Virus record (IMG/VR): IMGVR_UViG_3300031991_000033
Length of the DNA stretch: 22,856 nt
Reading direction: 5' to 3' (one strand)
Source: a virus
Below, in pieces: positions 5,473-19,051 of this stretch (its first letter is position 1; every line of letters starts with the position of its first letter). The notes below the pieces were generated by a model that worked only from the letters and a program-made list of their open reading frames with translations, did not search any database and had not been told where the DNA came from. The translations under genes and the position numbers were made by a program.

Positions 5473-6763
5473 TGCGTCTCGTTTCTTTGTGAAAAAACTC
5501 GGAAGCTGCCGATCTTCTTATTGAAATCGGCAGCTTTCTTTTTTCGTCAGATGTAAGAATCCAACTCAAAACCCGTACAAGTTCTGTCTTCTGCTCATCT
5601 GACATTTCTTCATCCATAAGATAGATGAACTCAATGCTCTGGTCTTCGGCTTGGTGAATCCTATAACTCATCCGTTCATTTCCGAACGGATTCTTATTCA
5701 GTTCGAGTTTATTGACAAACCTTCCGCCTCGAAGGAAACAAGCTAAGAATTCAGAAATGAATCGACCGGAAACGGCTCGATTGTCAACATAAATCGCCTC
5801 GACCTGTTTGCCAAAGAACTTGGTGAAATAGTTCCCATATAAGCCGCACGAACACATACCTTTTTCAATCAAACCATTATCGTTGTTGTAATAGCGAATG
5901 AACGGCATAGCTTCATTATTTAGGTCTGTCGAGACTAGACGACCGTCAACTTCTTCCAAATAGCAAAACTCATCATAGATGTGTTTGCGACCATGACAGC
6001 ATTCAAACCAAGACATACCGCCGTCCCAACAGATCATTTTGTCAATTGCTTTTGTAAACATTTTGTTGGCGATTTCACGCACTCTCTCTGAGAGGGTTTC
6101 CTCACTCAATATAACAGGGCAGTTGAATTTCAAGTTCGGTGCGGCTTGATGCACCACTTCAAGGATGGACGGCGAACATCGTACAAATTTTGGATTCAGG
6201 GCGAGTGCTCTTTCAAGGTTCAAATCCCAGATGTATTGGCTGAATCTTTTTTCGACGTTGTAAAAGAAGTGATATGTCTCGTTGTGCCCGCCAACGGGTA
6301 GGTATTGACTCGGACCGAATATGGAGCAAAACCGGTCGTTTGTAATTGGATGATCGCCATACAAGTGGTGTACACCATTACTCACAAAAGGTTCTGATGA
6401 GTGACTAAAGTACAATACCTTGCCCGGCTCGGTCATTCCATGTGATTGTTCGATCTTCCAAATATGGTGATCTTCCATAATTGGTTGTTGCGGCAGCGAA
6501 TAGCAATACTTCCTGTCTTCTAATCGCAAGCTTGTCGTACCAGAAGTGAATAGCTCCAAGTATTGGCTTGGCTCTAAATCCCTTAACTTTGGTATGTGAT
6601 TCAACCGTTTTCCAAGCTCGGAATTGTGGATTTTCAGGATTCGAGTCAAACGCAATTCTTGATAACGGTTCAGGTCGGACTCATTGCGAAACAAGGTTAT
6701 CGACCGGTTTTTTAGCCAGTTTTCCCATGATGCAAACAAGTCTAATCCAAAATCAAAAAGCAT
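5420..6763 (-). CDS. Phenylacetate-CoA ligase/CapK-like adenylate-forming enzyme
   Basis: TSGTT P-loop, SEETL, STDLNNEAMPFIRY. Overlaps the rSAM 3' end convergently by 53 nt. Confidence 0.8.
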   Translation of the reverse strand: MLFDFGLDLFASWENWLKNRSITLFRNESDLNRYQELRLTRILKIHNSELGKRLNHIPKLRDLEPSQYLELFTSGTTSLRLEDRKYCYSLPQQPIMEDHHIWKIEQSHGMTEPGKVLYFSHSSEPFVSNGVHHLYGDHPITNDRFCSIFGPSQYLPVGGHNETYHFFYNVEKRFSQYIWDLNLERALALNPKFVRCSPSILEVVHQAAPNLKFNCPVILSEETLSERVREIANKMFTKAIDKMICWDGGMSWFECCHGRKHIYDEFCYLEEVDGRLVSTDLNNEAMPFIRYYNNDNGLIEKGMCSCGLYGNYFTKFFGKQVEAIYVDNRAVSGRFISEFLACFLRGGRFVNKLELNKNPFGNERMSYRIHQAEDQSIEFIYLMDEEMSDEQKTELVRVLSWILTSDEKRKLPISIRRSAASEFFHKETRRTKSLEISSAFLKTHREL

Positions 6764-6779: not shown

Positions 6780-7388
6780 ATGCAGAACTACATTGAATAT
6801 GATCGACTGGTGAAATATCGTGAAAAAGACCTAATCGACAAACCGATTGTCATCTATGTCCACCGTATTAAAGAGGACATTGTTGCTTCTTTTCACAAAA
6901 GTATTTCCGAAGCACACACCACCGGGCAACCGGTGATCCCGATTGTTATTGACTCATTTGGGGGTTGTGCCTACGCCCTTCAGTCTTTGATCAGTGGTAT
7001 CAAGAACTCCAAACTTCCCGTTGCAACTATTGTAGAAGGCAAGGCGATGTCTTCTGGGGCGATTCTGTTTTCTTGTGGTACACCCGGTTACCGATATATG
7101 GGACCAGAGTCCACTCTGATGATACACGATGTATCCAGCACAGCGAACGGTAAAAGCGGAGAAGTAGAAGCTGATGCGATGGAGACGAAGAGAATCAACG
7201 AAACAATCCACAAAATGATGGCAAGAAGCTGTGGTCAACCAGAAGGTTACTTTCTCGACATGATCCATGAACGTGGTCACTCGGACTTATATCTGACTGC
7301 CAAAGAATGTCTGGCTCACCGTATCACAGATCATATACACATCCCAACACTAAGAACTTCGGTACAAGTAACGCATGAATTTCGTTGA
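6780..7388 (+). CDS. clpP: ClpP-like protease subunit
   Basis: IDSFGG, GKAMSSG (catalytic Ser), LMIHD (His) and DLYLTA (Asp). Confidence 0.88.
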   Translation: MQNYIEYDRLVKYREKDLIDKPIVIYVHRIKEDIVASFHKSISEAHTTGQPVIPIVIDSFGGCAYALQSLISGIKNSKLPVATIVEGKAMSSGAILFSCGTPGYRYMGPESTLMIHDVSSTANGKSGEVEADAMETKRINETIHKMMARSCGQPEGYFLDMIHERGHSDLYLTAKECLAHRITDHIHIPTLRTSVQVTHEFR

Positions 7389-7941
7389 ACGTAACAGATA
7401 TGGAAAAACCGAGTTACACAGGCATCCGGTGATTTTTGCTCACGCCAAACAGGAATTGAAGTCGCCGAAGCACATTGTTTCTTTTGGTTGTTCGACCGGC
7501 GAAGAGTGCATTACATTGGCGGAATTGTTCCCAGAAGCCTCTATCTTGGGGATTGAGATCAATGATGCACGAAGGATGTTAGCATTACCACACGAACGAG
7601 TAACCTACGCAAAGGAACTCGTTGCTGGTTCTTATGACGCAATTTTCTGTATGTCAGTGCTGTGTAGGCATCCAGAAACGGATATCCTCAATGATTGCTC
7701 GCAGTTTTACAAGTTTTCAGACTTTGAGTCCGAAACTTCGTTTTTGGCTTCTCTGCTTGTAGAAGGCGGATTGTTGGTGCTTTTCAACACGACCTTCTTT
7801 TTTGAGGACACCGAAACGTACAAACTGTTTGTTGGTATTGACATTCCGGCAGCAACAGGCGAATATGTCAGGAAGTTCGGGACGGATAATCGCCTCACAA
7901 ATCGTAGCAGTAAAAAATATCTGTTCCGAAAACGAGGTTGA
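7375..7941 (+). CDS. SAM-dependent methyltransferase-like protein
   Basis: SFGCSTGEE (CheR-like motif I), GIEI, YDAIFCMSVL and GGLLV. Confidence 0.7.
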   Translation: MNFVERNRYGKTELHRHPVIFAHAKQELKSPKHIVSFGCSTGEECITLAELFPEASILGIEINDARRMLALPHERVTYAKELVAGSYDAIFCMSVLCRHPETDILNDCSQFYKFSDFESETSFLASLLVEGGLLVLFNTTFFFEDTETYKLFVGIDIPAATGEYVRKFGTDNRLTNRSSKKYLFRKRG

Positions 7942-7965
7942 CAAAACGGACCAATTTCGTAGAAT
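7938..7965 (+). promoter_or_regulatory. Promoter TTGACA-N16-TAGAAT for cspA
   Basis: Near-consensus sigma70 elements. Confidence 0.7.
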
Positions 7966-8019
7966 GCGTGCTCACTGGTTTTTTCCCGACAGGGAATCGC
8001 AAAAGAGAAGAGAAACACA

Positions 8020-8220
8020 ATGGCTGAAGGACAGATCAAGAAACTGACAGACAAGGGGTTTGGATTTATCAAAACTGGAAACGGTGATGATCTGTTCTTC
8101 CACATGTCTAACCTGAACGATGTTCATTTCGACGACCTACAGGAAGGTGACACTGTTACCTACACGGTAGGCAAAGGTCCAAAGGGACCACGGGCTGAAA
8201 ACGTCACTCCCAAAAAATAA
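8020..8220 (+). CDS. cspA: Cold-shock protein (CspA family)
   Basis: RNP1 KGFGFI, RNP2 LFFH and GPKGPRAENV. Confidence 0.95.
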   Translation: MAEGQIKKLTDKGFGFIKTGNGDDLFFHMSNLNDVHFDDLQEGDTVTYTVGKGPKGPRAENVTPKK

Positions 8221-8232
8221 TCCCAAAAGGGA

Positions 8233-8261
8233 TTGAAAAATTGACGTGAAGATACTACTAT
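8233..8261 (+). promoter_or_regulatory. Promoter TTGAAA-N17-TACTAT for the leader transcript
   Basis: Sigma70-like elements; the -10 lies between inverted repeats gtgaagata (8246-8254) and tatcttcac (8261-8269). Confidence 0.6.
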
Positions 8262-8287
8262 ATCTTCACAAGCAAAGGATCAAAATC

Positions 8288-8365
8288 ATGCGACAAGTTT
8301 TGTTTAGTTCATCGTTCTCCTTGTATAGCCTCCTTCTAGGTGGTTGCGGGAACGTTCTGGACTAA
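8288..8365 (+). CDS. Attenuator leader peptide MRQVLFSSSFSLYSLLLGGCGNVLD (25 aa)
   Basis: AAGGA RBS 8 nt upstream; followed by an intrinsic terminator; alternative RNA pairings present. Confidence 0.8.
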   Translation: MRQVLFSSSFSLYSLLLGGCGNVLD

Positions 8366-8427
8366 ACACAGCAAGTAGGGTTGATTAAAAGCCCGGCTGT
8401 CCAGAACAGGACAGCCGGGCTTTTTTT
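8301..8427 (+). promoter_or_regulatory. Ribosome-coupled transcription attenuator (protector, antiterminator, terminator)
   Basis: 8301-8311 pairs with 8358-8368; 8313-8319 pairs with 8348-8354; 8354-8362 gttctggac pairs with 8399-8407 gtccagaac; terminator at 8391-8427. Confidence 0.75.
8387..8427 (+). terminator. Rho-independent terminator
   Basis: 12-bp perfect stem gcccggctgtcc/ggacagccgggc, 6-nt loop, T7 tail. Confidence 0.92.
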
Positions 8428-8473
8428 GGTCCTCACGCATGGTTACAACAATTGTAATCAGGACGAGGAAAAT

Positions 8474-8734
8474 ATGTCCAAAGCGACTGAAGCGTTGGAA
8501 GATTTGATGTTCGGCATCTTCGTGTCGAGCAGACGAGAGAGTGATTTTGGACCCGGACAGAGAGTGTTGAAAGCGAGACCGGAGATAAGGGAAAAGTTGG
8601 CTCAGCTAAAATCAGAAGAATTGCTGAACCTTCGACCCGACCTTTGTGTCTTTGAAAGTGAAGAGACGAGACAGAAAAGAGAGTTCAGCGAGCTTCTTCA
8701 AAAATTTGATAAAGAAATGCTGAACCTTGGTTGA
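8474..8734 (+). CDS. Hypothetical protein (86 aa), first gene after the attenuator
   Basis: GAGG RBS before ATG 8474. Confidence 0.7.
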   Translation: MSKATEALEDLMFGIFVSSRRESDFGPGQRVLKARPEIREKLAQLKSEELLNLRPDLCVFESEETRQKREFSELLQKFDKEMLNLG

Positions 8735-8758
8735 CAAAAAATGTCTAAGTCGTAAAAT
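8731..8758 (+). promoter_or_regulatory. Promoter TTGACA-N16-TAAAAT upstream of the first tRNA
   Basis: Near-consensus elements; same architecture as 7938-7965. Confidence 0.7.
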
Positions 8759-8779
8759 CGACGAGACGAAAAACAAAAT

Positions 8780-8860
8780 GGCTCTGTGGTGGAATAGCAG
8801 ACACGCTGGTCTTAGAAACCAGTGCCGTAAGGCGTGCAGGTTCGAGTCCTGTCAGAGCTA
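8780..8860 (+). tRNA. tRNA-Leu(TAG), long variable arm
   Basis: Cloverleaf; CTGGT-CT TAG AA-ACCAG; TTCGAGT T-loop. Confidence 0.92.
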
Positions 8861-8861
8861 C

Positions 8862-8962
8862 TTGGAAGTAAAAACCGGTGTACAACGGTAGGTGACATGT
8901 AGGAGATAATGCTTTCTCCGAGGGTTTCAATTCCGTGAGAGTGATTAGGCTCTTACTTCCAA
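8862..8962 (+). ncRNA. Structured RNA candidate between tRNAs
   Basis: Closing stem ttggaagtaa/ttacttccaa with several internal hairpins. Confidence 0.4.
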
Positions 8963-8967
8963 AACAT

Positions 8968-9049
8968 GGGTAGGTATGCAAGTGGTTAAAGCAGCCTGAC
9001 TGTAAATCAGGTGCCTTCGGCTTCGTGGGTTCGACTCCCACCCTGCCCA
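8968..9049 (+). tRNA. tRNA-Tyr(GTA)
   Basis: Cloverleaf; CCTGA-CT GTA AA-TCAGG; long variable arm. Confidence 0.92.
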
Positions 9050-9050
9050 C

Positions 9051-9153
9051 TGACAAGAGAAGCATCAGAGCCGTAAGGCGATGGTGGAGGTACTTGGTGC
9101 CGAGAGGCATCTTAAACAAAGATCATAGTCTGAGTCGTACTTCGATCTTGTCA
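9051..9153 (+). ncRNA. Structured RNA candidate with two GNRA hairpins
   Basis: tgacaaga/tcttgtca closing stem; gcc-GTAA-ggc; ggtgcc-GAGA-ggcatc. Confidence 0.5.
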
Positions 9154-9157
9154 TTAT

Positions 9158-9230
9158 GGAACTTTGGGATAGTTGGTACGTCCGGTGGGCTGAAAACTCG
9201 CAGGGGTCAGTTCGATTCTGACAGGTTCCA
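9158..9230 (+). tRNA. tRNA-Phe(GAA), divergent
   Basis: GGAACTT/AGGTTCC acceptor; GTGGG-CT GAA AA-CTCGC. Confidence 0.85.
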
Positions 9231-9281
9231 CTCATCATCAAACCTTAGAGAAAGCGGTTAGTCTTTACTCGAAAGGAGAGA

Positions 9282-9527
9282 ATGATGAAAGCGATTGTGT
9301 TAATGGGTTGTGATTACGACTACGAGTTTGTCGAAGCCGTGTTCCTTGTAGAGGATGATGTTCAGGAATCGGAATTGCGAAAGCAATGGCATGAAGAGTG
9401 CTCGATTCCATATAAGGGCAAAAACCAATACGGGGAGTGGACTTCGACCAAGTACGCCAAACACAGCAAGCAATTCCATGAATGGCTGGCTGAAAAGTTT
9501 GACAAAGTAGAAGTGATCTCGATCTAA
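9282..9527 (+). CDS. Hypothetical protein
   Basis: AAGGAG RBS; 81 aa; followed by a UUCG hairpin (9535-9550). Confidence 0.7.
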   Translation: MMKAIVLMGCDYDYEFVEAVFLVEDDVQESELRKQWHEECSIPYKGKNQYGEWTSTKYAKHSKQFHEWLAEKFDKVEVISI

Positions 9528-9555
9528 CGACCACGGGAGCTTCGGCTCCCAAAAT

Positions 9556-9640
9556 GGGGGCTGATCCACACGTCTGGCTGTAAACCAGATGGCATTGTTA
9601 TGTGTGGTGGTGCCGATGGGTTCGATTCCTACATCCCCCA
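9556..9640 (+). ncRNA. Aberrant D-armless tRNA-like RNA with GTA (Tyr) anticodon loop
   Basis: TCTGG-CT GTA AA-CCAGA arm; TTCGATT T-loop on a 4-bp stem; GGGGG/CCCCC acceptor; no D stem. Confidence 0.7.
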
Positions 9641-9656
9641 CTTACAAAGGATTGTT

Positions 9657-9869
9657 ATGTACCACGTTGAAAGAAATGCAAACAACAATCTCGGTTGGCA
9701 CAAGTTGATGTTCACCGAGTCACGAACCAGAGCTTATTGCGACGGTTATGTTGACGCATTCGATTCAATGTATCCAAGCGATCCAATGAGGATTGTAAAA
9801 GTTGAGAAAGATGGTACAACGAAAGTTGTACGAGAAACGAAAGGACGTGGTAAAGTCCACGTAAACTAA
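9657..9869 (+). CDS. Hypothetical protein
   Basis: AAGGA RBS before ATG 9657. Confidence 0.7.
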   Translation: MYHVERNANNNLGWHKLMFTESRTRAYCDGYVDAFDSMYPSDPMRIVKVEKDGTTKVVRETKGRGKVHVN

Positions 9870-9871
9870 AA

Positions 9872-9952
9872 CGCCTCGTGGTGGAATGGCAGACACGCCA
9901 GACTCAAAATCTGGTGCCGAAAGGCGTGTGGGTTCGAGTCCCACCGAGGCGA
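9872..9952 (+). tRNA. tRNA-Leu(CAA), long variable arm
   Basis: CCAGA-CT CAA AA-TCTGG; acceptor CGCCTCG/CGAGGCG. Confidence 0.92.
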
Positions 9953-9956
9953 CTGT

Positions 9957-10448
9957 ATGAAGTACCGACTCAAGATATTGAACATTGCATTGGTTCTAGT
10001 CTTAGTTTGTGCGTTCATATTGAAGATTGATTTCGGGCAACCGAAAAAAGTAACCGAACCTTCGGAAGATTCCGTTGTCCTTCAGTTACTCGAAGAGACA
10101 AACCAGTTCCGTAAGAAAAACCATCTTACAGAATTGACTCTCAACAAAAAGTTACTGCAAGCAGCCATGAAACACTCAGAGTGGATGGCGGCGAACGGTA
10201 AACTAGATCATACCGGCAAGAACAGAACAAGTCCTGCCGATAGGATCGATGCCGAAGGGTATAGTTGGTCAGCCTGTGCGGAGAATATCGCATGGAATTA
10301 CGAAACGCCTGAAACAGTAGTGCAAGGGTGGATTGGTTCCAGAGGGCATAGACAGAACATGCTCGGCAAATACACTGAAACCGGGTTTGGCTATGCAAAA
10401 TCGTCGTCTGGGGAATTGTATTGGACGGCGGTTTATGCAAAACCTTGA
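9957..10448 (+). CDS. CAP/SCP-domain protein with N-terminal signal or anchor
   Basis: NQFR, AAMKHSEWMA, LDH, AENIA, GWIGSRGHRQNML and YWTAVY. Confidence 0.9.
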   Translation: MKYRLKILNIALVLVLVCAFILKIDFGQPKKVTEPSEDSVVLQLLEETNQFRKKNHLTELTLNKKLLQAAMKHSEWMAANGKLDHTGKNRTSPADRIDAEGYSWSACAENIAWNYETPETVVQGWIGSRGHRQNMLGKYTETGFGYAKSSSGELYWTAVYAKP

Positions 10449-10458
10449 AGAGAACTGA

Positions 10459-10839
10459 ATGTTTGATCTTTCATATAGAAAAGTTTATAACAAAGGTCGT
10501 CGTGGTGAACGAGGACCAAAACAGAGGTACGCTGTTTTTCGTGCCGAACTGAACTTGAAGCGAGAAGAGGATTACGAATCGTGGTGCGAGAACTATTGTA
10601 ATCTAAAAGGTCTTAACCTTGAAGATTATAAGATCGAACACGATAAACTCCCGTGGACAATGACATGGGAATACATTAGAATCCGCAACAGAGTTTGGCC
10701 TTATAGTTTTCCACCTTACGTCATGCGTAGGTATAACGAAGAAGAGTTGGGAGCTTTGAGACGAAACATTGAACTCGCCGAAAGGATCAGGGATGAACGA
10801 AGCAGCCGTATTGACGAACGAATGGATCAAATCGTGTGA
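10459..10839 (+). CDS. Hypothetical protein
   Basis: Co-directional ORF that tiles with its neighbours. Confidence 0.65.
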   Translation: MFDLSYRKVYNKGRRGERGPKQRYAVFRAELNLKREEDYESWCENYCNLKGLNLEDYKIEHDKLPWTMTWEYIRIRNRVWPYSFPPYVMRRYNEEELGALRRNIELAERIRDERSSRIDERMDQIV

Positions 10840-11119
10840 GTATCAGAACGGACCAAATCCTGATGGCACTTACAGTTTATGGTTGTGGAACGGAGACAAA
10901 GACCTGAAGGTTGGTGATTGGTATGGTGGAGCAAAAGTTGTTCGTATCATTCATCAATTCCAAGCTTTAGGAGAAGTACAAGTTTTGGATCGAGGTTACA
11001 AGGGGTACGTTACCTTTAACCGAGAGCCGGGGCTTATGTTGAAAGAGAATGAGCCAGACTTTGTAGAATGGCTTGAGAAGAATGCCCATGTGGTGAAATT
11101 GGCAGACACGCCAGCTTGA
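10793..11119 (+). CDS. Hypothetical protein; 3' end overlaps tRNA-Leu(GAG)
   Basis: AAGGA before ATG 10793; the stop lies in the anticodon loop. Confidence 0.6.
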   Translation: MNEAAVLTNEWIKSCEYQNGPNPDGTYSLWLWNGDKDLKVGDWYGGAKVVRIIHQFQALGEVQVLDRGYKGYVTFNREPGLMLKENEPDFVEWLEKNAHVVKLADTPA

Positions 11120-11167
11120 GGGGCTGGTGCCAGCAATGGCGTGGAGGTTCAAGTCCTCTCGTGGGCA
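11084..11167 (+). tRNA. tRNA-Leu(GAG), long variable arm
   Basis: CCAGC-TT GAG GG-GCTGG. Confidence 0.92.
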
Positions 11168-11171
11168 CTAT

Positions 11172-11254
11172 GGAAGCGATCCGGCTGGATGAGGAACCTA
11201 CCTCGAAAGTAGGCGGGTGTAAAAGCCTTGGGGGTTCAAGTCCCTCCGCTTCCG
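11172..11254 (+). tRNA. tRNA-Ser(CGA)
   Basis: CCTAC-CT CGA AA-GTAGG; long variable arm; G73. Confidence 0.88.
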
Positions 11255-11257
11255 CTT

Positions 11258-11341
11258 GGAGGATAAGCGACTGGTAAGCAGGCTCTTTGCTAAAGAGTTG
11301 GTCTGAAACATGGCTTGCGGGTTCGAATCCCGTGTCCTCCG
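11258..11341 (+). tRNA. tRNA-Ser(GCT)
   Basis: GCTCT-TT GCT AA-AGAGT; G73. Confidence 0.88.
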
Positions 11342-11349
11342 CTTGATTT

Positions 11350-11433
11350 GGAAGGTAAGCGACTGGTAAGCAGGCTGCTTGGAAAGCAGTTGCCCTGAAA
11401 TACGGGTTGCGGGTTCGAATCCCGTGCCTTCCG
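11350..11433 (+). tRNA. tRNA-Ser(GGA)
   Basis: GCTGC-TT GGA AA-GCAGT; G73. Confidence 0.88.
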
Positions 11434-11437
11434 CTTG

Positions 11438-11758
11438 ATGAAGAAATACAATTTTGGGAACTTTTACCTAGGAACATTTGCTGATTTCAAAACTTGCACG
11501 AGACCAAGAGAACCACCAGATTTTTGGTCATATAGTGGATCAACCTATTGGGATTTAGGCGATAGGGTGATCAGGTGGAGTGATCATTGGGGATCAAACA
11601 TAAGCACTTGTGCTTGGTATCTTGATGGTTGTAAACTCAGTCTCGATTACTGTCTTGCAGGCGAATGTTTGTATGAAGAGTTTGAACTGGTCGAAAAAGA
11701 GAAAGACTGGTTATGGAAAGACTATTGGGGTTGCGACCATTCCGGTATGGGAACTTAA
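11438..11758 (+). CDS. Hypothetical Trp/Tyr-rich protein
   Basis: ORF fills the gap between RNAs; contains RWSDHWG. Confidence 0.7.
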   Translation: MKKYNFGNFYLGTFADFKTCTRPREPPDFWSYSGSTYWDLGDRVIRWSDHWGSNISTCAWYLDGCKLSLDYCLAGECLYEEFELVEKEKDWLWKDYWGCDHSGMGT

Positions 11759-11771
11759 TCGGTAATCAATC

Positions 11772-11849
11772 CGAGTCGGATGGCAGGAAAGGCACACATC
11801 ATGTCCTGAACGGAGATGTTGTGTGGGGGTTCGAGTCCCCTCGACTCCA
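11772..11849 (+). ncRNA. Aberrant tRNA-like RNA (acceptor and T arm, no D stem, extended arm with CTGAACG loop)
   Basis: GAGTCG/CGACTC; GGGGG-TTCGAGT-CCCCT; cacacatc/gatgttgtg stem. Confidence 0.65.
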
Positions 11850-11857
11850 CTAAATTT

Positions 11858-11944
11858 GGAAGGTAGGCAACTATCGGTTCGTTGCGTCTGTCCGCTAAAC
11901 AGATGACCCTTCGGGGTCTGCGGGTTCAACTCCCGTGCCTTCCG
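11858..11944 (+). tRNA. tRNA-Ser(GCT), atypical (C33, 5-bp D stem)
   Basis: TCTGT-CC GCT AA-ACAGA; GACCC-TTCG-GGGTC variable arm. Confidence 0.82.
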
Positions 11945-11987
11945 CTTCTCACGGTCTTTGGGATATCTATGTTCCAAAGGGGTGAGA

Positions 11988-12032
11988 CACCGCAAACCGG
12001 GTCAGGTCAGAAATGAAGCAGCCCTAGCGGTG
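11988..12032 (+). ncRNA. ffs: Minimal SRP (4.5S) RNA, helix 8/domain IV
   Basis: GGTCAGGTCA-GAAA-TGAAGCAGCC matches the E. coli motif GGUCAGGUCC-GGAA-GGAAGCAGCC with a compensatory pair; closed by caccgc/gcggtg. Confidence 0.8.
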
Positions 12033-12035
12033 AAT

Positions 12036-12108
12036 GGACAGTGAGCTAGTGTGGTCATAGCGTCGGACTGAAAATCCGAAGAAGTCGGTTCGATCCCGGC
12101 ACTGTCCA
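12036..12108 (+). tRNA. tRNA-Phe(GAA)
   Basis: TCGGA-CT GAA AA-TCCGA; GGACAGT/ACTGTCC acceptor. Confidence 0.9.
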
Positions 12109-12130
12109 CTACAACGTCAAGGAGAAAGAC

Positions 12131-12586
12131 ATGTTGCAAGCAATGAAGGCACAGATGGTTTTGGCAATGAAAGCCAAGAACGTCACCGAAAGAGACATTT
12201 TACGACTTGTGATTGGCGAGGTACAAAGTGCCGAAGCTAAACAAAACAAGTCGTTTACAGACGAACAAATTGAATCTGTAATTCGCAAGCAAATCAAAAG
12301 CAATGACGAAGCATTGACTTTCGTGCAAGCTGGCGATGAAAGACACACAAAGTTGCTGGATGAGAACGTGATTCTCAACAAGTTGCTTCCAGCGACTTTG
12401 AGTCAAGAAGAAATTGAAGCATTCTTCTTGAACTCAGACGGACCAGAATTCGAACAAATTCGTGATGCGAAGAATGATGGTCAAGCAACGGGTATCGCAA
12501 TGAAGGCTTTGAAAGCCGCTGACCAAAAGGTTCTCGGCGACGATGTAAAAGCAATTATTGCAAAGATTCGAAGCGAGATCGCCTAA
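12131..12586 (+). CDS. GatB/YqeY-domain protein
   Basis: AMKAK...LRLVIGEVQ...DEQIESVIRKQIK...LLPATLSQEEI. Confidence 0.85.
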   Translation: MLQAMKAQMVLAMKAKNVTERDILRLVIGEVQSAEAKQNKSFTDEQIESVIRKQIKSNDEALTFVQAGDERHTKLLDENVILNKLLPATLSQEEIEAFFLNSDGPEFEQIRDAKNDGQATGIAMKALKAADQKVLGDDVKAIIAKIRSEIA

Positions 12587-12635
12587 TGAACTTTTACGAA
12601 TTTGTCATTACACCAAGTTAAAAACCATTGAATAA

Positions 12636-12704
12636 GGTGCGGTAGCTCAGTTGGTAGAGCACTGGACTGAAAATCCGGGTGTCGGCGGTTCGAGTCCGCC
12701 CCGT
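12636..12704 (+). tRNA. tRNA-Phe(GAA), 3' end displaced by inversion
   Basis: Canonical D, anticodon and T arms. The missing ACCA is on the minus strand at 13120-13123. Confidence 0.85.
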
Positions 12705-12772
12705 CGATGGGACTCGAACCCATAGCATCAGATATTCTGAGTATCTGTGGTCTACCAATTGCCTACGACGCC
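12702..12772 (-). tRNA. Short-variable-loop tRNA-Leu(CAG), 3' end displaced by inversion
   Basis: GGCGTCGTAGGCAATTGGTAGACCA-CAGATA-CT CAG AA-TATCTG-ATGCT-T arm. The missing last acceptor bases and discriminator (CCA) are at 13127-13129. Confidence 0.8.
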
Positions 12773-13051
12773 ATTCATCTTCAGTAAGTCGTGAATGTTA
12801 CCAAAACGAGGACGATGGTTACAGTCTTTGTAAACCAAAATGTACTCGCCCGATTCCAACTCACGACGACCGCTTAGCCAATAAGCTGTGAATCTATGAT
12901 GCCCATCTTCCACTTGTACCGTTCCATCCTCGAATTCAGCGAGGGTGATTGGCGGCAATGGTTGAGACGCACCGATAGCTTCAAGCATACCGGGAATCTG
13001 CGAAGACCTTTTCAGGCTTCTTTGCGTGATGTGTATTGCTTCGATATTCAT
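12752..13051 (-). CDS. ParB/sulfiredoxin-like domain protein
   Basis: LPPITL...VEDGHHRFTAY motif; start uncertain. Confidence 0.75.
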   Translation of the reverse strand: MNIEAIHITQRSLKRSSQIPGMLEAIGASQPLPPITLAEFEDGTVQVEDGHHRFTAYWLSGRRELESGEYILVYKDCNHRPRFGNIHDLLKMNGVVGNW

Positions 13052-13131
13052 GATCCAGAACGAATTGTTCTGGCGGTGGAATACCGAATGTCACGCAAAT
13101 CATCATGTCAGTCTCCTAGTGGTACGCCACT

Positions 13132-13353
13132 ATGAGATTGAAAAAACAGAACTGGTTCTTTTGTGAACTTTGCGACACAATGTCCTACCAATTTGAATGC
13201 TGTGGAAACACAGCTTGCAACGGTGGGGGTTGTGATAAATGCAAAAAACTCTGGAAACAGGTTTGGCGTCTCATTGAAAATGGAAGGGCACCGAAGAAGA
13301 GCGAAGTTCGATTCATGCCCAAACCAGACTTTGGAAGCAATCCGGCTGGATGA
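13132..13353 (+). CDS. Small Cys-rich protein
   Basis: CELC, CCGNTAC and CDKC; overlaps the tRNA-Ser(TGA) 5' end. Confidence 0.65.
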   Translation: MRLKKQNWFFCELCDTMSYQFECCGNTACNGGGCDKCKKLWKQVWRLIENGRAPKKSEVRFMPKPDFGSNPAG

Positions 13354-13415
13354 GGACGCTACCTTGAAAGTAGTCGGGTGTAAAAGCCTTGGGGGTTCGA
13401 GTCCCTCTGCTTCCG
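13333..13415 (+). tRNA. tRNA-Ser(TGA)
   Basis: GCTAC-CT TGA AA-GTAGT; paralog of 11172-11254. Confidence 0.88.
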
Positions 13416-13429
13416 CTTAGGAATAGATC

Positions 13430-14074
13430 ATGAAAATCACAGCACTATCCGACCTGCACGGCTATCTGCCACCAATCGAAAACCCAACTGACTTGGTTTT
13501 GATTGCCGGTGATATCTGTGCTCACGGAAAACCCAGATACCAACTCAATTGGCTACGAGATCATTTCAAGCCTTGGCTTGAGAAGATTGATGCACCAGTG
13601 GTTGGTGTTGCCGGAAACCACGACTGGCCATTTTTTGGACAAGAGTATCCTTCCTTGAAGGAAGAAATCCAAAAGTTGGATTTGCTGTGGACTTACTTGG
13701 AAGACAGCGGAACCGAGATCAATGGGACCAAGATTTGGGGAACTCCTTGGCAACGAGAGTTCTACGATTGGGCTTTCAATCTCAAGGCACACGAACTTCC
13801 GGCAAAGTGGGCGTTGATCCCTGATGACACTGACATTTTGGTTTGTCATGGACCACCGTTCGGATTTGGCGACTTTGTAACTCGTGACAACGAGAACGTT
13901 GGATGTCCAGCGTTGCTCAGAAGGATCGAAGACATCAAGCCAAAACTGGTTGTTTTTGGTCACATTCATTGTGGTCACGGACACTGGAAGTATGACGGAG
14001 TTCAACTAGCAAACGTAACAGTGGTGAATGAGCAGTACCAACTGGTCTATCCGCCGTTCGAATACGAAATCTAG
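13430..14074 (+). CDS. Calcineurin-like metallophosphoesterase
   Basis: SDLHG, AGD, GNHD, HGPP and FGHIH. Confidence 0.9.
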   Translation: MKITALSDLHGYLPPIENPTDLVLIAGDICAHGKPRYQLNWLRDHFKPWLEKIDAPVVGVAGNHDWPFFGQEYPSLKEEIQKLDLLWTYLEDSGTEINGTKIWGTPWQREFYDWAFNLKAHELPAKWALIPDDTDILVCHGPPFGFGDFVTRDNENVGCPALLRRIEDIKPKLVVFGHIHCGHGHWKYDGVQLANVTVVNEQYQLVYPPFEYEI

Positions 14075-14082
14075 GAGATTCA

Positions 14083-14850
14083 ATGCGAAAAGACATGAAG
14101 AAAGTAATCATCTCCCGCCCTCGTGCGGGTGGTATTGACCGCTGTCTTCGCAAGAAGATCAACGTTCAAGACTTGGATGAAAACAACGACATTGACGACG
14201 GGTATCCCACTCGCATCAGTGTCAAGAAAGACGCTGTAGGACCGAACGGTGACCGCAAGAGCCAAACCGACTTGCTCGGACCTCTGCAACGTTACCTCCG
14301 CAAACAGGTCGGGCGTCCTTGGAATGATGTGTGGTCGGAAATCTGTGAACACAGCAAAGACTTCATGGGCGACCATCTCAAAACCCACATCGAATGGGAA
14401 GTCGAGGTCAACTGTCGCTTCGATGAAGACGAACTCGTAGGACCGAACGGCTATCCGGTTGGACGCTGGCGTCGGAATGGACAACTGTACGTTCATCCCG
14501 AAACCGGCATCCTCCTCAAAGCCGAAGCTCGTGACAAGTACCGACACAAGAAGCCTGAATACAAGATCGTCGAAATGGACGGTCAAGAATACTACCAGCA
14601 TGAAGGCATCTGGTATCGTGTGAAGACCGAACCCTACGAACCCAAGGATGCTTGGGAACGTCATTACGGATCGTTCAGCAGCGATGTCTTTAGTAACGGT
14701 GGTGGCAGCTTCAACGGTCTCGGATACTATCGTAGCAAGTCTTTGTCGGAAGCTTATGGGAAGTCCATTCGCTGTGTCTGGAAACAGCAAGCCAACAGCA
14801 AAGAATGCAAACGACTCAACGGTGTGATCGAAAGGAAGGAAGCCGCTTGA
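14083..14850 (+). CDS. Hypothetical basic protein (255 aa)
   Basis: AGGAG RBS; long ORF. Confidence 0.8.
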   Translation: MRKDMKKVIISRPRAGGIDRCLRKKINVQDLDENNDIDDGYPTRISVKKDAVGPNGDRKSQTDLLGPLQRYLRKQVGRPWNDVWSEICEHSKDFMGDHLKTHIEWEVEVNCRFDEDELVGPNGYPVGRWRRNGQLYVHPETGILLKAEARDKYRHKKPEYKIVEMDGQEYYQHEGIWYRVKTEPYEPKDAWERHYGSFSSDVFSNGGGSFNGLGYYRSKSLSEAYGKSIRCVWKQQANSKECKRLNGVIERKEAA

Positions 14851-15143
14851 TGTTTTGGCGTCGTAGGCAACTTGGTAGACCACAGAAGCTCAAACCTTCT
14901 GATGCTATGGGTTCGAATCCCATCGACGCTACTGAACAAAACGAGAGAGCGAAAGCTATTCTCCAAGAATGGATCGATCAACAAGGTCATGAACGTTGTT
15001 GGTATTATCCAGACCTTTTCAATCGTTTGATTAAGGTATATGGCATTGAAACAACCAAAGAACCAAACTTACCACCACGATGCGAGTTTGAGGAAGGTTG
15101 TAGAAGATATCAGGAAGAAGAGTATGAACGAATTGATCGCTGA
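14850..15143 (+). CDS. Hypothetical protein; start lies before or within the tRNA
   Basis: The nearest in-frame ATGs are 14850 and 14907. The C-terminal part (QGHERCWYYPD) looks protein-like. Confidence 0.55.
   Translation: MFWRRRQLGRPQKLKPSDAMGSNPIDATEQNERAKAILQEWIDQQGHERCWYYPDLFNRLIKVYGIETTKEPNLPPRCEFEEGCRRYQEEEYERIDR
14857..14931 (+). tRNA. Short-variable-loop tRNA-Leu(CAA)
   Basis: CAGAAG-CT CAA AC-CTTCTG-ATGCT; A73. Confidence 0.82.
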
Positions 15144-15360
15144 GGCACGTAAACATTTAGCCGCCCTCACTCCCGGTGACTGGACGGTAGATGAATGTGG
15201 GTCGGAAGACTGTTGGTGTCGCTGCATCGGCAGCACACACCCAGAACATGCAGAACGAGGCGTTGTTCCTTCGGGATGCATGGACAAACACGACGCCGAA
15301 GCAATCGTTTGGATCAGAAACAATTTGGGTCGGATTCTTGATGCTTTGGAAGATGCCTGA
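15124..15360 (+). CDS. Hypothetical protein (TPGDW motif)
   Basis: MNELIAEARKHLAALTPGDW...; resembles common small phage ORFs. Confidence 0.7.
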   Translation: MNELIAEARKHLAALTPGDWTVDECGSEDCWCRCIGSTHPEHAERGVVPSGCMDKHDAEAIVWIRNNLGRILDALEDA

Positions 15361-15366
15361 TAACAT

Positions 15367-15443
15367 GGCACGGTAGGCAATTATTGGTAGACCACAGACG
15401 TTGAGATCGTCTGATGCTCCGGGTTCGAGTCCCGGTCGTGCCA
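15367..15443 (+). tRNA. Short-variable-loop tRNA-Leu(GAG)
   Basis: CAGACG-TT GAG AT-CGTCTG-ATGCT; ends 16 nt before the LeuRS start. Confidence 0.82.
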
Positions 15444-15459
15444 CTTTTGGAGAAAGATC

Positions 15460-16755
15460 ATGAAGGGTTTTGACGCACCACCTTTGGACCCAAACATTGT
15501 AGTAATGTTCCCCTACCCTTCCGGTAAGGGATTGCACATGGGTCACTATTACAACTACGCCATCATCGACAGCTATTGTCGGTATTGGCGTCACCAAGGT
15601 AACAAAGTCTTCCAGCCATTTGGCTATGATGCGTTCGGCTTGCCTGCCGAGAACTACGCACGTCAAATTGGCGGTGATCCTCGTGAGATCACCTATGAAA
15701 ACATCGCCAACTTCCGTCGCCAGATGGAACAGATGAATACACAATTTGAAGAGAAGTTGGTGACTTCTGATCCGTCCTACTACAAGTGGACTCAATGGTT
15801 GTTCTTGAAGTTGAAAGAACATGATTTGGCTTACAAAGCCAATGGCTTGGTCAATTGGTGTCCATCCTGCGTCACTGTGTTGGCGAATGAGCAAGTGACA
15901 CCCGAAGAGCGTTGTGACCGTTGCGGCTCCGCTATTGACCAGCAAATGATGAATCAATGGTACTTCCGTATTACAAAATACCGAGACCGTTTGATCCAAA
16001 ATTTGGATTTCATCGACTATCCCGAAGGAACCATCAAACGTCAGCGTCAATGGTTGGAGAACTTGCATGATTGGTGTGTTAGTCGTCAACGCAAATGGGG
16101 TTGCCCAATCCCGATTGACGGCGAGGAAGACACTCTCGATACCTTCGTTGACAGCAGTTTCTACTACTTGAGGTACTTGACTGACTCAGAAGATGAGTTC
16201 TTGCCAGCCACAGCTTATCGTCCAGTGGATTTGTACGTCGGCGGTGCAGAACATGCTACGATGCATTTGATCTATGCACGATTCATTCACATGTTCTTGT
16301 ACGATATTGGCATTGTGCCACAAGAAGAACCGTTCGATAAGGTCATTCATCAAGGAATGATCACTAAAGACGGTTCCAAGATGGCGAAATCCAAAGGTAA
16401 TGTAGTCAATCCCGACGACTACAACTCAGACGAGTTGAGATTGGGTTTGATGTTCATTGGTCCTTATTTTGAAGGCGGTGATTGGAACGAACAGTCCATT
16501 CGTGGAGTTCAGAAATTCTTGCGGAAGTTCAGCAAGTGGTTGGAGTCTGCTTCGGGAACTGGCTTGGATTTGGATATGACAGAATTGAAGAATAAGATCG
16601 ACTCCAATGTTCGATCATTCAAATTCAATTTGGTTGTAAGCAACTTCATGAAGTTCTTGAATGAGAACAAAGGTAAAACCATTTCGTTCAAGACTCGATA
16701 CGAGTTGATGAACTTGTTTGGGTGTTTTGCACCCGGATATTTGGAGAAAATCTGA
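15460..16755 (+). CDS. leuS: Minimal leucyl-tRNA synthetase (431 aa)
   Basis: MFPYPSG-LHMGH, GYDAFGLPAEN, WCPSC..CDRC, DWCVSRQRKWG, DTFVDSS, YVGGAEHA and KMAKSKGN. Confidence 0.93.
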   Translation: MKGFDAPPLDPNIVVMFPYPSGKGLHMGHYYNYAIIDSYCRYWRHQGNKVFQPFGYDAFGLPAENYARQIGGDPREITYENIANFRRQMEQMNTQFEEKLVTSDPSYYKWTQWLFLKLKEHDLAYKANGLVNWCPSCVTVLANEQVTPEERCDRCGSAIDQQMMNQWYFRITKYRDRLIQNLDFIDYPEGTIKRQRQWLENLHDWCVSRQRKWGCPIPIDGEEDTLDTFVDSSFYYLRYLTDSEDEFLPATAYRPVDLYVGGAEHATMHLIYARFIHMFLYDIGIVPQEEPFDKVIHQGMITKDGSKMAKSKGNVVNPDDYNSDELRLGLMFIGPYFEGGDWNEQSIRGVQKFLRKFSKWLESASGTGLDLDMTELKNKIDSNVRSFKFNLVVSNFMKFLNENKGKTISFKTRYELMNLFGCFAPGYLEKI

Positions 16756-17153
16756 TGTCTCAGTGGATGTGTGAACTTTGTTTCCCAACCGGTGTTGAGT
16801 TAGGCGTCGTACTGCCGGGTTATTCCTTGATGCTTCTCAATGAGCAGTATCACCTTCTGGGTGGTCAGGGACACAATGGTCACATTTTGTTGACCTTCAA
16901 TCACCGTCCATTTCCAGACCCCGATCCAGAATCCGAAAGCACGGATCAGGAAGTGAACGCTTTGAGTGATCTGTGGCTGGAACACGTCTTGGAGCCAATC
17001 AGGAACTTAAAGCTTTCGCCTCAAGATGGTCACGATATCGTCGAGTCGGCAAAGGAATTCGGTTGGCATTACGAAAATTGCAACTTCGATTACTGGTTGG
17101 CTGACCGCTGTGGCGTGGTTGCTGCCGAATGGGAGAAGTCAAATGAAGGATGA
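16755..17153 (+). CDS. Hypothetical protein
   Basis: TGATG coupling to leuS. Confidence 0.7.
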   Translation: MSQWMCELCFPTGVELGVVLPGYSLMLLNEQYHLLGGQGHNGHILLTFNHRPFPDPDPESESTDQEVNALSDLWLEHVLEPIRNLKLSPQDGHDIVESAKEFGWHYENCNFDYWLADRCGVVAAEWEKSNEG

Positions 17154-17661
17154 TTTGTACTACCAAATGGTTGCCAAGTTCTACGAGGGCAAATTTGCCA
17201 AACGTAGCGGCGTGCCTTACATGAACCACATTGATGAAGGTATGGTCTTGTGCGATCATTTGGGGTATGATCTATATGTGAAACGAGCTTTTTGTCTTCA
17301 TCCATTGTTCCAAGCTGATGAAGCATTGGCTGGGATTAAACAATGGGAGCGAGTCGCAGACACGATTTTTGTTGACGAATTCGATGCTTATGTTATGATG
17401 CTCGTGATGGAGTACCGCAACAAGGCGAATGGGTATTTGTCGAACAAAGACAAAAAGGTTGAAGACATCAGTCTGAGTCCTTTGGAACAAGTCAATCAGA
17501 TGCTTGTCGTGGACAAGGTTCAGAACAGGAAGGACTTCGAGAAATATCACTTCGGCAGTCATCCTCGTTCTTTCCAGTTGAACACATATTTTCACAACTG
17601 GTTACAAAGATTGGGAATCTCCGAGGATAAATATCAAGAGTTGAAAGCTTTAATAGATTGA
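17143..17661 (+). CDS. Hypothetical protein, N-terminus resembling RelA/SpoT-type HD hydrolases
   Basis: KRSGVPYMNHI and VVDKVQNR, but HP in place of HD. Confidence 0.6.
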   Translation: MKDDLYYQMVAKFYEGKFAKRSGVPYMNHIDEGMVLCDHLGYDLYVKRAFCLHPLFQADEALAGIKQWERVADTIFVDEFDAYVMMLVMEYRNKANGYLSNKDKKVEDISLSPLEQVNQMLVVDKVQNRKDFEKYHFGSHPRSFQLNTYFHNWLQRLGISEDKYQELKALID

Positions 17662-17664
17662 CAT

Positions 17665-17738
17665 GGCACCGTAGGCAACCGGTAGACCACTTGGACTTAA
17701 AATCCGAGATGCTGAGGGTTTGATCCCCTCCGGTGCTA
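17665..17738 (+). tRNA. Short-variable-loop tRNA-Leu(TAA)
   Basis: CTTGGA-CT TAA AA-TCCGAG-ATGCT; atypical T-loop TTTGATC. Confidence 0.78.
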
Positions 17739-17817
17739 CTCACAACAATAAGCTCAGACAAAAGGCTATCTTGTTGCAGACTGAAAGCCTCTGAGAAGCA
17801 ACTGTTGTGACCCCAAC

Positions 17818-17854
17818 GAAAAAGGCGTCCTGATTTGATCAGGACGCCTTTTTC
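17818..17854. terminator. Bidirectional intrinsic terminator closing the tRNA island
   Basis: aaaaaggcgtcctgat-ttg-atcaggacgccttttt between convergent units. Confidence 0.9.
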
Positions 17855-17857
17855 TAT

Positions 17858-18037
17858 TTATGCTGTTTCTTCATCGTCGTTCACAGTCCAAATCACAAAC
17901 AAGGCGTGAAGTAGACCGGGGAAGTATCCAAATAAGGTCAATGCAATGTTCAGCCAGAAATGGAATCCGAGTCCTACTTGTAGGAAAACTCCGACTGGTG
18001 GAATGAAAAGTGATAGTACGGAACGGATTACGTCCAT
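17858..18037 (-). CDS. YqaE/Pmp3-family small membrane protein (59 aa)
   Basis: Not in the ORF track. MDVIRSVLSLFIPPVGVFLQVGLGFHFWLNIALTLFGYFPGLLHALFVI...; GGAGG RBS. Confidence 0.9.
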   Translation of the reverse strand: MDVIRSVLSLFIPPVGVFLQVGLGFHFWLNIALTLFGYFPGLLHALFVIWTVNDDEETA

Positions 18038-18094
18038 TTGACCTCCCTTATGGTTTAGACTCCCTATTACTATGATATGGTTAATGGAGGAAAA

Positions 18095-18370
18095 ATGAAC
18101 GAGAAGATCAAACTCTGGGTTAGTTTTACTGTAATTGTGCTGCTTTTTGTGGCGGGATTTTGGTACACCGGGATGGTGGAAGACTCAGTGAAACCCAAAG
18201 GTGCTAAACTGCCGCCGACTGCAACCAATGTGGTTGATCATGGCGAGAGTTGGTATAGTTTTGATCTTATGATTGGAGACAAAACAATCACGGTCATTCA
18301 TCACTTCGATAAACCAATCCAAAAAGAAGATACAGCACAACCAATTGATGATGAATTCTTGAATTCTTGA
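18095..18370 (+). CDS. Hypothetical membrane-anchored protein
   Basis: GGAGG RBS; N-terminal hydrophobic helix. Confidence 0.7.
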   Translation: MNEKIKLWVSFTVIVLLFVAGFWYTGMVEDSVKPKGAKLPPTATNVVDHGESWYSFDLMIGDKTITVIHHFDKPIQKEDTAQPIDDEFLNS

Positions 18371-18442
18371 ATGATTGGAGGAAGCCCGATCAACCTGATG
18401 TAGATCACGAAGATGATCCAACCGACGAAAGAGAACACGACA

Positions 18443-19051
18443 ATGCAAACGATCCATAAAAAATCAATCATCATGGGTGCGTCTGCCGCCGTGATCATCT
18501 TAACCTTTGCTGGTTTGATTATCGCAACGATGCCCATACACACATCCGAAACAGAACTGGTCAACCGCTTTGTACTTGATGCACCTTTCAAAGAGGTTCG
18601 AAAGACCTTGCAAAAGGCGGATTTGGCAAAGGCGGCATTAGAGATGAGTGGCGGACAAATCGTATCTGAAGAAGTAGTTTATCGAAAGGTCGGATTCGAA
18701 GGTGCTTTAAGAAATTGGAACTTTCGGCAGATAGTCCATACAACGGTGAGTGCTGAAGGTACAACTCTTTTTGTACAAAGTGATACTCAAGCGGTGCCGG
18801 AAAGTGTAGATGTTTTAGTGACTTTGAGAAAACCAAATACAAAAATTGGTTTAAGGCAACTCAGACAAAGTATTCGGATTGTTCCACTTGGCGAGTTACA
18901 AACGATTGTGACTCACGAATCATTGGTGTCTGTGACCAGAAAATGCCCCACTTTATGGCACAATTATATGGATACCAAAGTTCGTGAAGCTGTAGAGAGT
19001 GACATCCAGTCTATCGAGTATTTAATGAGACAATATGTAGAGAGGAGATAG
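18443..19051 (+). CDS. Hypothetical membrane-anchored protein
   Basis: N-terminal TM segment; start uncertain (18413 or 18443). Confidence 0.7.
   Translation: MQTIHKKSIIMGASAAVIILTFAGLIIATMPIHTSETELVNRFVLDAPFKEVRKTLQKADLAKAALEMSGGQIVSEEVVYRKVGFEGALRNWNFRQIVHTTVSAEGTTLFVQSDTQAVPESVDVLVTLRKPNTKIGLRQLRQSIRIVPLGELQTIVTHESLVSVTRKCPTLWHNYMDTKVREAVESDIQSIEYLMRQYVERR

Follow-up and report, generated by a model that had tools for sequence, protein, structure and literature searches.

The stretch analysed here (the window, 22,856 nt) is the last 22.9 kb of a 157.8-kb fragment of a huge phage with 45% GC (IMG/VR record IMGVR_UViG_3300031991_000033). It contains a cold-shock-domain protein gene (csp), a short open reading frame (ORF) followed by an intrinsic terminator, an orphan gene (ORF86) and an array of tRNA genes with a half-size leucyl-tRNA synthetase (LeuRS) gene. 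The following features were identified (window positions):

7938..7965 (+), consensus sigma-70-type promoter (TTGACA-16-TAGAAT) of the csp gene
8020..8220 (+), cold-shock-domain protein gene, 66 aa (Pfam PF00313, E 4.8e-20)
8233..8261 (+), promoter-like site of the leader, TTGAAA-17-TACTAT, 9 of 12 matches
8274..8279 (+), Shine-Dalgarno (SD)-like AAAGGA, 8 nt before the ATG
8288..8365 (+), leader ORF, 25 codons plus TAA (8363-8365)
8300..8338 (+), codons 5-17 of the leader, the putative control codons, only Leu, Phe, Ser and Tyr
8297..8372 (+), predicted hairpin 1:2 (protector), enclosing most of the ORF, with the stop codon in its 3' arm
8354..8362 (+), core of region 2, which can pair with either region 1 or region 3
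8386..8427 (+), intrinsic terminator, stem 8390-8402 with 8409-8421, extended by A-U pairs, then U7
8399..8407 (+), region 3, the top of the terminator 5' arm plus its loop
8474..8734 (+), ORF86, orphan protein
8731..8758 (+), consensus promoter TTGACA-16-TAAAAT, 22 nt before the first tRNA
8780..17739 (+), tRNA array (Leu, Ser, Phe and Tyr only) with interspersed genes, including the mini-LeuRS at 15460-16755
17818..17854, next terminator-like site of comparable strength on the + strand, just after the last tRNA

The csp product is most closely related to Planctomycetota Csp (77–81% identity). There is no terminator between csp and position 8390, so transcripts from the csp promoter should also enter the leader. 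The site at 17818-17854 has 17 pairs, 8 of them G-C, against 7 pairs or fewer for the other + strand sites in the stretch scanned (7000-18500), and would close the unit that the leader opens. ORF86 has no Pfam or NCBIfam family, no usable Atlas neighbour and only a low-confidence structure model.

The Leader ORF and the tRNA Array

The leader ORF encodes MRQVLFSSSFSLYSLLLGGCGNVLD. Codons 5-17 are TTG TTT AGT TCA TCG TTC TCC TTG TAT AGC CTC CTT CTA, i.e., 12 distinct codons for only four amino acids. SD-like 4-mers precede 50% of the long ORFs of this phage but only 10% of random sites. ARAGORN detected 13 tRNAs in the whole 158-kb record, all of which lie in the window and are Leu, Ser, Phe or Tyr. 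Relaxed thresholds added Ser-CGA, Ser-TGA and two Phe-like genes, which gives the anticodon list of the preliminary description. The 431-aa protein encoded at 15460-16755 matches bacterial LeuRS best (E 1e-114) but is half-size. The preliminary description placed a promoter, a ribosome-binding site, a 25-codon ORF, a terminator and three alternative pairings at this locus, and every one of these sequence features was confirmed.

It seems unlikely that the codon run arose by chance. Leu, Ser, Phe and Tyr together make up 22.6% of the phage codons, so that 13 in a row has a chance of about 4e-9 per site. Runs of 13 or more occur three times in six frames of 158 kb; the other two are a 14-residue L/F/S run at genome position 8955 on the minus strand, which is the antisense frame of a K/E-rich gene, and a poly-Ser stretch. 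None of 200,000 composition-preserving shuffles of the 39 nt gave an all-L/F/S/Y run. The codon diversity of 12 out of 13 has p of about 0.03 given the peptide and the phage codon usage.

Alternative RNA Pairings

The minimum-energy fold places most of the ORF within one long hairpin (8297-8319 with 8348-8372, z -4.9), followed by the terminator (-32 kcal/mol, z -8.6). The proposed antiterminator consists of nine perfect Watson–Crick pairs between 8354-8362 (GUUCUGGAC) and 8399-8407 (GUCCAGAAC). Among the 18 strong terminators of the genome, this is the longest perfect complement between the upstream 100 nt and the 5' arm plus loop (the others reach 4–7 nt; shuffle p 0.003). The stop codon at 8363-8365 lies inside region 2, where a terminating ribosome would mask it.

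Transcripts ending just after region 3 were also folded with a ribosome footprint masked. A ribosome placed at codons 5-14 brought the 2:3 helix into the minimum-energy structure, whereas a ribosome at the stop codon, or none, did not. The same was found for the distant relative L059 (see below) with stalls at codons 3-15. However, the antiterminator covers only 4 nt of the terminator 5' arm plus the loop, and only the apex in L059, so that the GC-rich lower stem stays free. Once the 3' arm is present the terminator wins at equilibrium in every masked fold, and the switch must therefore be kinetic, as in trp. An extension of the antiterminator by pairing of the spacer with the lower terminator arm was no better than in shuffles.

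No Rfam family matched the + strand of 8233-8480, even at E up to 1. A T-box, which binds tRNA directly and needs no translation, is thus not supported.

Conservation in Related Phages

Two relatives keep the element. L015, a 1-kb ENA contig found through ORF86 (73% identical there), is about 85% identical in DNA over the leader. Its ORF has the same start, stop and length and reads MRQVLFSSSLFYSSLFLSGSDYVLD. Codons 5-18 are all L/F/S/Y although ten nucleotides in that stretch differ, and the chance that the set survives those changes is 0.002–0.02. L058 and L059 are two IMG/VR fragments of one distant phage, found through the 255-aa array protein (35% identical). They carry a clearly homologous leader with the shared blocks GTTTAGTTCATC and TGGACTAAAC, the promoter and the terminator. 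The ORF (24 codons) is in the same frame with the same stop and reads MTFSFSSSLLYLYSLSREHDTVMD, with codons 3-16 all L/F/S/Y. Residue identity to the window peptide is only 16 of 25 for L015 and 8 of 25 for L059. L015 keeps the promoter-like site at 8233, L059 has the equivalent TTGCAA-17-TACTAT, and AAGG of the SD-like sequence is kept in both.

The conservation of the alphabet rather than of the residues is what control codons predict and what a functional peptide does not. An alternative is that the ORF encodes a small functional peptide, such as a membrane peptide or a type I toxin-like product, with a structured mRNA and no relation to tRNA supply. It has its own promoter, SD and terminator, its SD region can pair with the 3' flank in the fold, and the peptide is moderately hydrophobic in the window (best 17-aa Kyte–Doolittle mean 1.48). 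However, hydropathy falls to 1.21 in L015 and 0.59 in L059, and the run has no Ile, Val, Ala or Met, which is unlike membrane segments, so that a conserved hydrophobic peptide of transmembrane length is not supported. This reading also explains neither the 2:3 complement and its covariation nor the identity of the alphabet with the four amino acids of the array, and we consider it unlikely. A lipoprotein signal reading (LLLGGC) was rejected because the Cys is not conserved in L015 or L059.

Compensatory changes were found in all three helices. In helix 1:2, the pair 8301:8368 changes from UA to CG in L059, and 8317:8350 (CG to AU) and 8333:8339 (CG to UA) change in L015. In helix 2:3, the pair 8357:8404 changes from CG to AU in L059, so that a base in the terminator loop changes together with its partner in region 2. 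In the terminator, four pairs are changed on both sides (L015 and L059). All 26 cells of helix 2:3 pair, against 24–42% when the partner is slid, and L059 has its own 9-bp 2:3 helix, shifted by two positions (p 0.0026). With only three distinct sequences the covariation statistics are weak (166 of 500 shuffles match the single 2:3 change), and the pattern gives qualitative support only.

It could also be that the locus is a structured non-coding element, either a small RNA or simply the 3' end and terminator of the csp transcript, with an incidental ORF and a long hairpin serving stability or processing. The position of the whole ORF inside a conserved hairpin with compensatory changes, the lack of a terminator between csp and 8390 and the absence of an Rfam match or expression data are compatible with this. 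Against it, the frame, stop codon, SD and an L/F/S/Y-only run persist in three lineages while the nucleotides between the conserved blocks are largely replaced. Moreover, L059 has other genes than csp upstream of its leader, and the leader has its own conserved promoter. This explanation therefore seems improbable.

Further searches returned no additional homologs. Searches of viral contigs with ORF86 and with the CAP-domain protein found nothing. Csp searches of viral contigs and the protein database gave only host-like planctomycete csp loci (L001, L017 and L018, of which L017 was inspected). Three DNA patterns gave no match in viral contigs or genome contigs, a metagenome pattern gave only a chance hit in a GC-rich bacterium (L016), and a last pattern in viral contigs recovered only L058/L059. 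Five LeuRS-sharing relatives (L002–L006, or G001–G005) show no DNA match to the leader, and the three that were scanned (G001, G002 and G004) have no codon-matched mini-ORFs before terminators or tRNA clusters.

Leader Alphabet and tRNA Content

In L059 the leader and terminator are followed by two small ORFs and then 11 tRNAs: Tyr, Tyr, Phe, five Leu and three Ser. These are all the tRNAs on both fragments (array at L058 916-8225 and L059 1205-8514). The restriction to four amino acids is therefore a conserved trait and not an accident of the fragment studied here. No promoter-like site lies between the terminator and the array in L059.

The preliminary description had suggested testing whether leader codons co-vary with array anticodons in related phages. 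A more distant 494-kb phage (L062) has two non-homologous mini-ORF plus terminator cassettes (6157-6325 and 8726-8905), whose peptides (Leu/Ser-rich, and Ile/Val/His/Trp-rich) match the tRNA blocks that follow them. MKNASLLSLSLLLLS plus a terminator lies directly before seven tRNA-Leu genes, and MNNKIVHQVIWHVITFRGKGC plus a terminator precedes Trp, Trp, a gene, and then Val, His, Ile, Ile, Val. The leader alphabet therefore changes with the tRNA block.

A third alternative is a real terminator/antiterminator switch that is operated by something other than stalling at L/F/S/Y codons, such as temperature or the adjacent Csp RNA chaperone melting the hairpins, or general translation speed and coupling. 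CspA-family proteins are transcription antiterminators, a csp gene sits 70 nt upstream, and the weak antiterminator suggests a kinetic switch that is sensitive to many inputs. However, csp is absent next to the L059 leader, and a factor-only switch needs neither a conserved ORF with a restricted codon set nor leaders whose alphabets change with the tRNA block, as in L062. We regard this possibility as unlikely as well.

Promoter Downstream of the Terminator

The promoter at 8731 belongs to a six-member family of near-consensus promoters, TTGACAAA-N13-TCGTA[AG]AAT, at positions 45183, 82134, 115245, 142875 and 143668 (+) and 41434 (-) of the 157.8-kb record. Two members flank the leader, at window positions 7938 (which also drives csp) and 8731. 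The site at 8731 is conserved in L015, where it is directly followed by an HNH-endonuclease-like gene (618-1040), probably a mobile insertion, at the place where the window has its first tRNA. Since this strong promoter lies downstream of the terminator, it would bypass the attenuator, and the array should not depend on read-through in this genome. ORF86 has no promoter of its own and is the only gene that lies strictly between the terminator and this promoter. Its homolog in L059 sits elsewhere in the array module.

Proposed Mechanism

We propose that the locus is a ribosome-mediated (leader-peptide) transcription attenuator at the 5' edge of the tRNA and LeuRS unit, and we consider this likely. 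In this model, transcripts from the promoter at 8233, and probably from the csp promoter at 7938, carry the 25-codon ORF. If the leader is not translated, or if the ribosome runs quickly to the stop at 8363, region 2 would be paired with region 1 or covered by the ribosome, the terminator (8390-8427) would form and transcription would stop. If the ribosome stalls in the control codons because any Leu, Phe, Ser or Tyr tRNA is scarce or uncharged, region 1 would be held open and region 2 would pair with the apex of the terminator as it emerges. Hairpin nucleation would then be delayed, and the polymerase would read through into ORF86 and on into the array. The promoter at 8731 would give the array a basal supply, to which the attenuator would add a demand-dependent supplement, and read-through is the only visible route to ORF86. 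Phage tRNAs that accumulate would speed leader translation and close the loop by negative feedback.

The anatomy of the element, its non-random nature and its conservation and covariation are shown by the sequence analysis, whereas translation of the leader, stalling, read-through and its dependence on charged tRNA, and the physiological trigger are inferred. The interpretation in the preliminary description, a leader that senses loss of any of many isoacceptors and turns on replacement tRNAs plus LeuRS, is thus only partly supported. The core reading, a translated leader with trp-type alternative pairings and control codons matched to the array, is supported by the three lineages and by L062. 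However, the array and LeuRS would not be switched on by the attenuator alone in this genome, and starvation or an anticodon nuclease as the trigger is pure inference; shut-off by the phage is a further possibility.

Comparison With Known Systems

The multivalent leaders of the enterobacterial ilvGMEDA (Leu/Val/Ile) and thr (Thr/Ile) operons, as well as trpL, hisL, leuL and pheL (for pheL, PMC3082878), have a short translated leader with a run of control codons, mutually exclusive 1:2, 2:3 and 3:4 helices, a stop codon placed so that a terminating ribosome covers region 2, and an intrinsic terminator. The element described here shares this layout and fits every sequence-level criterion of a leader-peptide attenuator, its translation being inferred. 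It differs in that the downstream genes are tRNA genes and a synthetase instead of biosynthetic enzymes, it is phage-borne, it has four amino acids and 12 distinct codons, its antiterminator sequesters the terminator apex rather than the whole 5' arm, and a second promoter bypasses it. The pheST attenuator (pheM leader) of Escherichia coli also reports tRNA charging and controls a component of the translation apparatus, an aminoacyl-tRNA synthetase, but it senses a single amino acid, is chromosomal and controls no tRNA genes. T-box leaders of Bacillota sense tRNA status and switch a terminator/antiterminator before synthetase and related genes. The inducible L-array of tRNA genes in Anabaena PCC 7120 is likewise horizontally mobile and expressed mainly when translation is impaired (PMC8421152), but it is bacterial and covers many amino acids, and the text of that paper mentions no leader, attenuator or terminator. 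Phage tRNAs that counter tRNA-cleaving defenses (PARIS, PMC11464382; retrons, PMC11555353; bacterial Schlafens, PMC13056530) provide a rationale for a phage to carry, and perhaps regulate, replacement tRNAs. Going by their titles and abstracts, these papers concern tRNA cleavage and rescue by phage tRNAs and not codon-matched sensors, and no tRNA nuclease was linked to the host of this phage.

Leader-peptide attenuation is textbook for amino-acid operons and one synthetase operon, but we found no published case in which it controls tRNA genes or phage tRNA arrays, or in which a phage uses it. If the proposed mechanism is real, giant phages monitor decoding capacity codon by codon and adjust their own tRNA supply. 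Phage tRNA arrays would then be read as regulated supply rather than as constitutive codon-usage patches or passive decoys, and the leader would provide a compact natural sensor of tRNA availability for four amino acids at once. The restriction of leader and array to Leu, Ser, Phe and Tyr in two distant lineages points to a specific, as yet unknown pressure on these tRNAs. More tentatively, it is possible that huge phages generally gate their tRNA gene blocks with codon-matched leader peptides, as a demand-sensing circuit. The Leu/Ser/Phe/Tyr module would then be a dedicated sensor-and-supply unit for tRNAs that a host defense or the phage's own host shut-off removes, acting together with a private mini-LeuRS and short-arm tRNA-Leu genes.

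Additional Features of the Region

A perfect 9-bp inverted repeat, GTGAAGATA-N6-TATCTTCAC (8247-8270), lies across the -10 element of the leader promoter. Seven of its base pairs are kept in L015 and none in L059; it could be an operator, or an RNA hairpin in csp read-through transcripts. In the minimum-energy folds of both the window and L015, the SD region of the leader (8277-8285) pairs with the sequence just after the U tract (8423-8432), using different sequences in the two. This pairing, whose meaning is unknown, can exist only in read-through transcripts. An 8-bp hairpin, GGTTACAA-CAA-TTGTAATC (8445-8463), lies just before the ORF86 ribosome-binding site, and L015 keeps it through two one-sided changes (G-U to A-U and A-U to G-U). 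Within the tRNA array, positions 11966-12058 (+) match the Rfam bacterial small SRP RNA at 41.4 bits, just above the gathering score of 40, and overlap the start of a tRNA-Phe gene.

Among public sequencing runs, no RNA run was listed as containing the locus. Four DNA runs yielded only short Logan contigs (199–232 nt) within 8000-8569, all identical to the window and thus without variants, from runs labeled cave, biofilm, wastewater and freshwater metagenomes of four studies.
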